From Escherichia phage vB_Eco_K-02, in sequence record PQ436005.1: a DNA stretch of 44,896 nucleotides, one strand, 5' to 3'. A program made the translations under genes and the position numbers. Numbering within the stretch: the first letter of the stretch is position 1; each line of letters starts with the position of its first letter. Of this stretch, positions 10,066 through 10,289 are shown piece after piece. The notes under the pieces were generated by a model. That model made no database searches, was not told where the DNA came from, and worked only from the letters and a program-made list of their open reading frames with translations.

Positions 10066-10084
10066 AAGGGGCGTCAAGCCCCTT
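10066..10084. terminator. bidirectional terminator hairpin between convergent genes
   Basis: Stem aaggggc/gcccctt with loop gtcaa; A-run upstream on plus strand, T-run on minus. Confidence 0.45.
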
Positions 10085-10289
10085 CACCGAACGCCAGCCA
10101 CTTAGCGTCTACTTCCAGCACTTCCGCCAGTTTAAACAACGTTGCCGGGCGGACGTCCTGAGTTACACCGAGAGCCAGCTGGTTAATTGCGCCCTGGGAG
10201 ACACCGGCCAGGACAGCCAGACGGCGCTGGGAGATGCCGAGTTCTTTACGGCGTTGCTCTACACGGATGCCTAGTTCGGATGGTTGCAT
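10074..10289 (-). CDS. XRE-family HTH transcriptional regulator (Cro/CI-like)
   Basis: RRKELGISQRRLAVLAGVSQGAINQLALG is a canonical XRE HTH; AAGGAG SD. Confidence 0.7.
   Translation of the reverse strand: MQPSELGIRVEQRRKELGISQRRLAVLAGVSQGAINQLALGVTQDVRPATLFKLAEVLEVDAKWLAFGEGA

Follow-up and report, generated by a model that had tools for sequence, protein, structure and literature searches.

The window analysed here is the whole 44,896-bp stretch from Escherichia phage vB_Eco_K-02 (sequence record PQ436005.1), and our subject is a small leftward gene in it for an XRE-family helix-turn-helix (HTH) protein, together with a 16-bp palindromic box that is found twice in the spacer upstream of this gene and recurs at promoters across the genome. 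Because of its length, and because terS and terL lie at its left and right ends, respectively, the window was taken as a near-complete genome; it is essentially one complete, circularly permuted genome of a K1G-like Kagunavirus. A 3-kb stretch around the XRE locus matched 449 phage records, the best being Escherichia phages phiEc4 and phiEc3 (97% identity), with further matches to Golestan, K1G and BASEL isolates, all of them Kagunavirus (Guernseyvirinae). The gene order was the same as that of phiEc3: a replication arm runs rightward from 7071 to about 20160, and a leftward arm runs from 6602, across the window ends, down to 20323, comprising small genes, lysis genes, terminase and structural genes, the last of these interrupted by a few reversed islands. 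Within the rightward replication arm, no gene other than XRE runs leftward.

The XRE gene and its divergent promoters

The first-pass annotation had placed a leftward open reading frame (ORF) for a 71-amino-acid (aa) XRE-family protein at this locus, and its coordinates proved exact (Table 1). The protein matched Pfam HTH_3 (PF01381) over residues 11-65 (E=2.3e-12, 47.2 bits, cut-off 23), and HTH_19 and HTH_31 were matched too. Its best PDB match was phage 434 Cro (1zug; E=5.4e-7, aligned residues 6-68), the second-ranked relative by sequence being the DNA-binding domain of the 434 repressor; HK446 Cro, which is identical to 434 Cro, shared 41% identity with the XRE protein, and 434 Cro likewise has 71 aa. 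An AlphaFold2 model (pLDDT 79) had five helices at residues 5-17, 21-28, 32-39, 48-57 and 62-66, for which Foldseek gave a probability of 1.00 with 434 Cro, 434 repressor, SinR and P22 C2; HipB, HigA and the restriction-modification C proteins C.BclI/C.AhdI were also among the fold matches. No second domain was found in the protein, its 71 aa amounting to the HTH only, with the last four residues disordered in the model, and no C-terminal oligomerisation or autocleavage domain (Peptidase_S24 or similar) was seen in the Pfam scan or the model. The XRE protein is a Cro/CI-type HTH protein, its closest solved relative being 434 Cro.

Within Kagunavirus, the XRE protein was at least 94% identical among public phage records, and GVSQGAINQLALGV was unchanged even in homologues at 79-87% identity, the recognition helix being invariant. 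The ratio of nonsynonymous to synonymous substitution rates (dN/dS) was 0.049 over 34 nucleotide alleles; the gene is under purifying selection and is therefore a working gene, not a relic. It was present in all three Guernseyvirinae genera compared, the alleles of which were 37-52% identical. In public records it is labelled transcriptional repressor, DicA, Cro or hypothetical protein, and in the K1G RefSeq record (33303-33657) it is unannotated, although its sequence can be read there along with the two boxes. As a monocistronic unit, the gene has a promoter and a terminator to itself and converges with the adjacent ORF (9863-10060); the terminator appears as T11 in the related phage Golestan (PMC7203180). 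In an RNA-seq study of Kagunavirus vB_Eco_K1B4, only four genes were early, among them _008, which encodes an HTH protein and lies downstream of _005, the gene for the AAA helicase-primase (PMC12645636); _008 is probably the XRE orthologue.

The 121-bp spacer upstream of the XRE gene (10290-10410) contained a 25-nt direct repeat (10310-10334 and 10354-10378), 80% identical and 44 bp apart from start to start, each copy of which holds one 16-bp dyad, here called box 1 and box 2. The two boxes are thus direct repeats on the same strand, and XRE is the only gene with two flanking boxes, an arrangement typical of autoregulated repressors. One box per divergent promoter, as initially proposed, was right in substance, since box 1 lies over the -10 of the leftward promoter favoured here and box 2 in the spacer of the rightward promoter P_R. 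Among 36 unique relatives, box 1 was nearly invariant, only one column of the central 4 bp and one flanking base being variable; in 36 distinct relatives, the half-sites of box 2 were constant and its central CG varied, as did the 3-nt linker to the -35, which also carried an indel. For the XRE gene, the predicted promoter that we favour is the extended -10 inside box 1, since it was invariant in the 36 relatives and Jerseyvirus SETP3 has a canonical TTGCAC-N17-TACTAT promoter at this position. An alternative leftward promoter found by consensus scan was less conserved, with variation in the last two -35 positions, an indel, and loss of the -10 in one relative. Other dyads in the spacer (a 9-nt inverted repeat at 10287-10295 and 10353-10361, and ACATGT at the -35) were not conserved in relatives and were taken as chance. 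An Rfam scan of the whole window revealed no RNA family at the XRE locus.

Variation next to this region was also observed. The slot after P_R (10411-10638) was hypervariable, with at least seven alternatives among close relatives, and in many relatives there was no insert, the homologue of orf10663 following P_R directly; P_R, both boxes and the XRE gene were nearly identical whatever occupied the slot. In Salmonella phage Kenya-K14, a mosaic junction was located at the edge of box 2 (around 32685), with a Kagunavirus-like P_R leader and -10 on one side and a Jerseyvirus-like box, spacer and XRE gene on the other, indicating that XRE and the adjacent boxes travel together.

The palindromic box across the genome

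The consensus of the box is a 16-bp palindrome, (T/G)AATAG-N4-CTATT(A/C), with half-site centres 10 bp apart. In an unbiased de novo count over the genome, AATAG-N4-CTATT was the top 5+5 palindrome, with 8 exact copies, ahead of terminator stems, and the same palindrome ranked first de novo in Jerseyvirus SETP3. Seven copies of TAATAGNNNNCTATTA were found at ≤1 mismatch (0.13 expected) and 11 at ≤2 mismatches (1.8 expected), and a search with GAATAGNNNNCTATT on both strands at ≤2 mismatches gave 30 matches against 10 expected, a number reached in 0 of 100 shuffles. In all, there are about 11 box sites in 45 kb, and all good copies are located at sigma70-like promoters.

Relative to the hexamers of these promoters, the boxes stand in three registers: 1) in the spacer, starting 3 nt past the -35 with only the last two bases entering the -10 (sites 10363, 13300 and 17061), 2) over the -10, with TACTAT forming the inner part of one half-site of TTGCAC-N17-TACTAT promoters (5502, 6626, 10319, 30414, 39649 and 41809), and 3) over the -35, with TTGACT in the box centre (2447 and 39558). 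A fourth register, starting 6 nt past the -35, was found in SETP3 only. When orthologous promoters, found by their flanks alone, were compared in seven other genomes, identity was 93.8% in the half-sites, as against 82.2% in the central 4 bp and 81.4% in the flanks, which include the -35 and -10 hexamers. In different phages, the site at 17061 read AATAG-CGAA/CTAG/CGGG/GAAC-CTATT, the half-sites being constant and the central 4 bp different, and the orthologs of 13300 in Kagunavirus and Jerseyvirus kept the half-sites with a changed centre and linker. Neither a dyad nor three to four registers can be read by RNA polymerase, so the placement is operator-like; judged from these patterns, the box behaves as a candidate operator, not as an RNA polymerase recognition element. 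A promoter-plus-box pattern (class A) was found in 51 stretches in IMG/VR; three short fragments apart, these lay almost exclusively on contigs of Guernseyvirinae size (24-45 kb), and the box element is specific to this phage lineage.

Several other explanations of the box were considered and rejected. The host-factor look-alikes known to us, i.e., the CRP half-site (TGTGA, at boxes 1 and 2 only), the ARG box and MetR, did not fit all sites; the DnaA box CTATTCACA occurred at boxes 1 and 2 only; and for a bidirectional promoter as the source of the dyad, the opposite side had no -35 and the hexamer spacing was wrong.

Table 1. Positions of the XRE locus, the box copies and associated elements in the window
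Feature	Position	Strand	Remarks
Box-less promoter candidate	612-641		just upstream of terS
Box copy, weaker	2447..2462	.	overlaps -35 TTGACT of leftward promoter downstream of lysis genes; ortholog in both genera
Box-less promoter candidate	2549-2577		
Box copy, perfect palindrome GAATAGTAGCCTATTC	5502..5517	.	over -10 TACTAT of leftward TTGCAC-N17-TACTAT promoter
Box copy	6626..6641	.	over -10 of first leftward promoter of small-gene arm
HTH_17 (excisionase/MerR-like) protein gene	7071..7241	+	56 aa; Pfam HTH_17, E=1e-9; first gene of helicase-primase operon
Intrinsic terminator of XRE transcript	10065..10085	-	8-bp stem with 5 GC pairs, then CTTTTTATTG; overlaps XRE stop codon
XRE/434-Cro-like gene	10074..10289	-	71 aa, ATG start, single HTH_3 domain
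Shine-Dalgarno AAGGAG	10298..10303	-	8 nt 5' of ATG; nearly invariant in 36 relatives
Box 1, GAATAGTACCATATTA	10319..10334	.	GAATAG-TACC-ATATTA, one imperfect half-site; proposed autoregulatory operator
Favoured XRE promoter, extended -10 TGgTACTAT	10321..10329	-	inside box 1; no good -35 in Kagunavirus; read from sequence
Alternative leftward promoter, TTCACA-N16-TAAAAT	10338..10365	-	10/12 matches
P_R, TTGACA-N17-TATAGT	10354..10382	+	11/12 matches; both hexamers nearly invariant in relatives
Box 2, GAATAGTTCGCTATTA	10363..10378	.	GAATAG-TTCG-CTATTA; proposed operator within P_R spacer
First gene of P_R operon	10411..10638	+	75 aa, Cys-rich ORF; no Pfam match, no HTH
Box copy	13300..13315	.	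spacer of rightward TTGACA-N17-TATATT promoter before single-stranded-DNA-binding-protein gene
Box copy	17061..17076	.	spacer of rightward promoter TTGACG...TATAGT upstream of methyltransferase/helicase genes
Box copy	30414..30429	.	over -10 of rightward promoter of reversed island (Imm-like superinfection immunity, phosphoesterase, PNKP-type phosphatase)
Box copy, weaker	39558..39573	.	overlaps -35 TTGACT, leftward, upstream of spanin gene
Box copy	39649..39664	.	over -10 of rightward promoter for reversed gene 39788-40132
Box copy	41809..41824	.	over -10 of rightward promoter for reversed gene 41851-42135, between head-morphogenesis and portal genes

Some of the sites and their surroundings had features of their own. 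At 2447-2462, the two genera differ as to which half-site is imperfect (AATAG..CTAGT in Kagunavirus, ACTAG..CTATT in Jerseyvirus), as though a pairing of one perfect with one imperfect half were maintained at this promoter. The box promoter at 30414 precedes an island (30470-32869, + strand) encoding four proteins: a T4 Imm-like protein first, a 411-aa calcineurin-like phosphoesterase, a PNKP-type HAD phosphatase, and a 184-aa ORF with a P-loop-like GPAGCGKDT motif; judging from these products, the island resembles an RNA- or DNA-end-healing module, with no ligase seen in it. In the spacer between the tail-assembly-chaperone gene and this promoter (30316-30380, - strand), Rfam gave a match to int-alpA RNA (RF02996) that only just exceeded the gathering score (36.6 bits versus 35.8), a family usually placed near prophage integrase and alpA genes. 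The leftward promoter at 6626 is separated from the HTH_17 gene by ~430 bp of non-coding DNA (6642-7070) holding a perfect 8-bp GC-rich hairpin, GGGTGGGC...GCCCACCC, at about 6719-6738; neither a box nor a promoter scoring ≥9/12 for the helicase-primase operon was found in this region. In phiEap-2, four copies of another palindrome, GAATAA-N-TTATTC, were found within 1.2 kb (11501-12683) near the spanin and scaffold genes.

Proposed role of the XRE protein and alternative explanations

From what was seen directly, i.e., the gene, its fold and homology, the purifying selection, the motif excess, the promoter placement and the conservation, we infer that XRE binds the motif and represses in a timed manner. 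We propose, with a probability of about 0.5, that XRE is a Cro without a CI, a self-repressing global repressor that would lower phage promoters in lytic growth. According to this proposal, 1) an XRE dimer would bind the 16-bp palindrome, 2) box 1, lying over the extended -10 and imperfect in one half-site, would serve as the operator for negative autoregulation, 3) box 2, a perfect operator in the P_R spacer, would allow repression of the recombination and replication operon, and 4) the palindrome over the -35, spacer or -10 of about nine more sigma70-type promoters would impose the same control on the leftward small-gene arm, the internal promoters of the replication arm, and three islands opposing the structural operon. 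As XRE accumulates early, the box promoters would be turned down and the islands head-on to structural transcription silenced; XRE could also blunt gene expression of a superinfecting relative. In the most speculative step, the weaker boxes at 2447 and 39558 and the box-less promoter candidates might leave later expression less affected. Our best model would thus be a standard mechanism, that of a Cro-type repressor, in an unusual setting with no CI, a virulent phage and dispersed operators.

Since boxes are present at about 11 promoters genome-wide, the arrangement is regulon-like and not that of a two-promoter bistable switch. The resemblance to a lambdoid switch noted in the first-pass annotation therefore held for a Cro/CI-type HTH protein encoded between box-bearing divergent promoters and failed for the remainder, there being no second repressor and many more boxes than two; the other suggestion made there, a lytic-cycle timing switch, comes close to the model preferred here, whereas the low dN/dS over the 34 alleles, the invariant recognition helix and the presence of the gene in three genera contradict the idea of a remnant that is decaying.

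The gene order of related genomes bears on which protein binds the box; those annotated and compared for gene content were phiEc3, SETP3 (Jerseyvirus), St162 and phiEap-2. In the Cornellvirus-type genomes (St162, VSiA and phiEap-2), XRE is co-directional with the helicase-primase gene and heads the operon containing it, and the genome has its principal divergent control region in the XRE spacer. Kagunavirus and Jerseyvirus carry the helicase-primase block in inverted orientation with the HTH_17 gene at its head, which accounts for the lone reversed XRE gene in this window. Pfam scans of about 54 ORFs revealed three HTH candidates, namely XRE, the HTH_17 protein and a weak sub-threshold NinH-like match at 945-1205, and XRE was the only HTH protein common to all three genera. 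In St162, a palindromic variant, TAWTAS-N4-STAWTA, was found at 7-8 promoters in several registers, including both XRE-flanking promoters, and the XRE-flanking region of VSiA had the same variant-box sequences. The HTH_17 protein was found in 442 records and had no match in St162, VSiA or phiEap-2. The box, a dyad of 16 bp whose half-site centres are spaced by one helical turn, has the geometry used by 434 Cro (3cro complex). XRE is favoured as the binder because a variant of the box persists where HTH_17 had no match, two boxes flank the XRE gene, the dyad geometry is of the Cro type, and XRE heads the control region in Cornellvirus-type genomes.

Several points weigh against this assignment and against the model as a whole. 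The same box occurs in Kagunavirus and Jerseyvirus despite divergent XRE proteins (51% identity; recognition helices SQGAINQ and SQSLITH, differing at 4/7 positions), so that there is no simple covariation of protein and operator, and the HTH_17 protein is better conserved between these two genera (77-80% identity) than XRE. HTH_17 also tracks the canonical box exactly, being present in Kagunavirus and Jerseyvirus and absent from Cornellvirus, and the Cornellvirus variant motif is a post hoc definition. Since the half-site looks like a -10 hexamer, part of its conservation could reflect promoter function. The helicase-primase operon (7071 onwards) has no upstream box, so the regulon is incomplete, and repression of promoters that also feed lysis and structural genes needs more explanation; the weaker operators at 2447 and 39558 and the box-less promoter candidates agree with a graded shut-off, though only weakly.

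The pairing between XRE and the box was also compared among phages. A third, different recognition helix was found in St162 and VSiA, where the box is altered, so that covariation of helix and box, with different helices on the same box in Kagunavirus and Jerseyvirus, was suggestive and not clean. GE_vB_M5, which had appeared to be a Jerseyvirus with a foreign XRE allele, carries an ordinary Jersey allele matched over residues 11-67 only, and S.Inf 5-2 is an unrelated phage with 434-like immunity and without boxes.

It is rather unlikely, while deserving serious attention, that the box is bound by another factor, the 56-aa HTH_17 protein or else a host protein, with XRE acting locally via another site or doing something else. 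The conservation of HTH_17 across two genera with an identical box, its lack of a match in the three phages in which the box is altered, and the differing XRE helices all fit such a binder, and E. coli and Salmonella have host factors in common. St162 and VSiA, however, keep the palindromic variant without an HTH_17 match, both sides of the XRE gene included, and the HTH_17 gene has no box upstream of itself. Excisionase-like HTH_17 proteins of such size are typically monomeric or bind direct repeats, whereas a 16-bp dyad suits a Cro-type dimer. We know of no enterobacterial regulator with the box consensus. The Pseudomonas AlpA is a much larger protein and binds as a single molecule to a 6-bp site at a fixed position in the promoter spacer (PMC9371919). 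The HTH_17 protein departs from this AlpA/Q type in having 56 aa, versus AlpA DNA-contact residues numbered to 142, and in that the box stands in several registers.

Both the box motif and the XRE gene are already in annotations of related phages, in which the motif has been read as part of the promoter. In the PHIRE table of Golestan, it makes up seven "conserved promoter sequences", with a pair preceding the DicA-like ORF48 and one, the counterpart of the 6626 site, entered as "before ORF54" (PMC7203180); in fBC-Eco01, the motif tgAATAGTa-ccTATTat-T is listed as a phage-specific promoter and assigned to a phage-encoded RNA polymerase (PMC9825357). These "phage-specific promoters" are the same motif at the same places as our box, but the two papers mention neither the dyad symmetry nor the variable register nor the link to XRE, and no RNA polymerase gene is present. 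In the open-access literature, we found no paper on the dyad, the variable register or the XRE link and no experimental work on the regulator, and searches of that literature for the motif itself, for MB78 and for Cro-like repressors in virulent phages gave nothing relevant.

That the box is an intrinsic feature of a phage promoter family, by duplicated-promoter ancestry or contact with an RNA polymerase, and not an operator, is unlikely. Besides the two PHIRE lists, such a reading can draw on the half-site CTATTA/TACTAT doubling as the -10 where the box covers it, and on the resemblance of the promoters with a box over the -10 outside the box too (CCCCAATAT, TTGCAC), suggesting common descent. 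Against it, no phage RNA polymerase gene was found in the window by Pfam scans or in the annotated relatives, and the box takes three registers relative to the sigma70 hexamers here and a fourth in SETP3. The spacer boxes, moreover, form no hexamer, yet their half-sites are invariant while centre and linker drift, and sigma70 recognition has no use for dyad symmetry.

The absence of an integrase and of a long repressor, stated in the first-pass annotation, was borne out. A search for recombinase and partition genes with hidden Markov models had been proposed there. Among the roughly 54 ORFs scanned against Pfam, which took in all unassigned ones large enough for an integrase, no integrase, recombinase, partition protein, CI-like repressor or S24-peptidase protein was found, nor did the annotations of the four relatives contain any of these. 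Of the claim that there is no excisionase pair, the lack of an integrase partner stood; an excisionase-like protein, HTH_17, is encoded. A protelomerase or plasmid replication initiator was not found in the Pfam scans or the phiEc3 annotation, and authors of related genomes called their isolates virulent or without lysogeny genes (PMC7203180; PMC9825357). When 185,579 bacterial species genomes (one each) were scanned with the Guernseyvirinae XRE alignment, no enterobacterial prophage was found, the scan using a single peptide pattern of limited sensitivity. The only close match was a 19-kb scaffold (NZ_JACVEL010000022.1) of a Taishania pollutisoli (Bacteroidota) assembly, 94% identical to SETP3, which is almost certainly Jerseyvirus contamination and not a prophage. 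Accessory genes of lambdoid type were present (NinH-like and DUF551 in the window; Rha/Ant, antirepressor-like, and NinZ in SETP3) and show gene exchange with temperate phages, not a temperate lifestyle. A temperate ancestry of the XRE module is possible, given its 41% identity to lambdoid Cro and the nin-like genes.

It would be a long shot that XRE, with boxes at almost every recognisable phage promoter, silences the whole genome and so provides either repressor immunity to superinfection by relatives or a carrier state that is transient and non-integrative. Very improbable is the related view that a cryptic carrier state without integration, or pseudolysogeny, exists with XRE as its immunity repressor: dispersed operators are, from general knowledge, the design of the prophage repressors P1 C1 and L5 gp71, the XRE gene has an autoregulated layout, and nin genes in the window and the Rha/antirepressor-like gene in SETP3 would agree with it, but no integrase, partition system, protelomerase or plasmid replication initiator was found, XRE has no C-terminal oligomerisation or cleavage domain, the published isolates are called virulent or reported without lysogeny genes, no close prophage relative was found in the low-sensitivity scan of species genomes, and the helicase-primase operon has no box. 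That XRE is not a phage transcription regulator at all and is instead an antitoxin, a restriction-modification C protein or a decaying relic is scarcely credible, since the antitoxins and C proteins among its fold matches and the cytosine methyltransferase gene at 17302-18231 are countered by a monocistronic gene with a convergent neighbour and no co-transcribed toxin or endonuclease, by the 7 kb separating the methyltransferase from it with no restriction enzyme, and, for the relic, by a dN/dS that rules out decay.

Significance and comparison with known systems

Among candidate phages for use against E. coli and Salmonella in therapy and biocontrol, Kagunavirus and Jerseyvirus are some of those most often isolated, and their small genomes serve synthetic-biology work. 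The varied annotation of XRE as repressor, Cro, DicA or hypothetical protein obliges authors to argue that a phage is safe and lytic. If the model of a Cro-type repressor without CI is true, XRE would belong to the regulation of the lytic cycle and not to lysogeny, publications that read the motif as promoter of a phage polymerase would be corrected, and a compact, portable repressor-operator pair with a map of about 11 regulated promoters would become available for phage engineering. The model would further offer a clean example of Cro-type action without CI, bearing on the relation between virulent phages and lambdoid ancestors. Were genome-wide silencing true instead, the XRE alleles of the three genera would define immunity types, and phages certified "strictly lytic" for therapy would carry a functional immunity system.

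Among solved proteins, 434 Cro (PDB 2cro, 3cro, 1zug) is like XRE in its 71 aa, 41% identity, five-helix HTH_3 fold and lack of an extra domain. As with lambdoid Cro, the gene lies by divergent promoters with short palindromic sites (14-16 bp), and the role proposed for XRE would match that of lambdoid Cro, which turns down early promoters in lytic growth, lambda Cro acting at PL and PR. Unlike XRE, which faces a 75-aa Cys-rich ORF, lambdoid Cro has a divergent CI partner, a tripartite OR/OL and a PRM-type choice; the 434 half-site is ACAA, versus AATAG at the XRE boxes; and lambdoid Cro has two operator clusters, whereas the XRE phage is virulent and has about 11 dispersed sites at which binding is predicted.

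C proteins and HipB/HigA share with XRE the small single-domain XRE fold and palindromic boxes upstream of their own gene, but they have an adjoining endonuclease or toxin gene, whereas XRE is monocistronic with a convergent neighbour. In P1 and mycobacteriophage L5, one small repressor (C1 and gp71, respectively) acts on many sites dispersed at or near promoters, called "stoperators". These phages and the XRE phage are alike in carrying many copies of one operator, here putative, across the genome at promoters. They differ in that P1 and L5 are temperate, with a repressor that maintains lysogeny and asymmetric sites, whereas the sites of the XRE phage are palindromic and no lysogeny genes were found in it.

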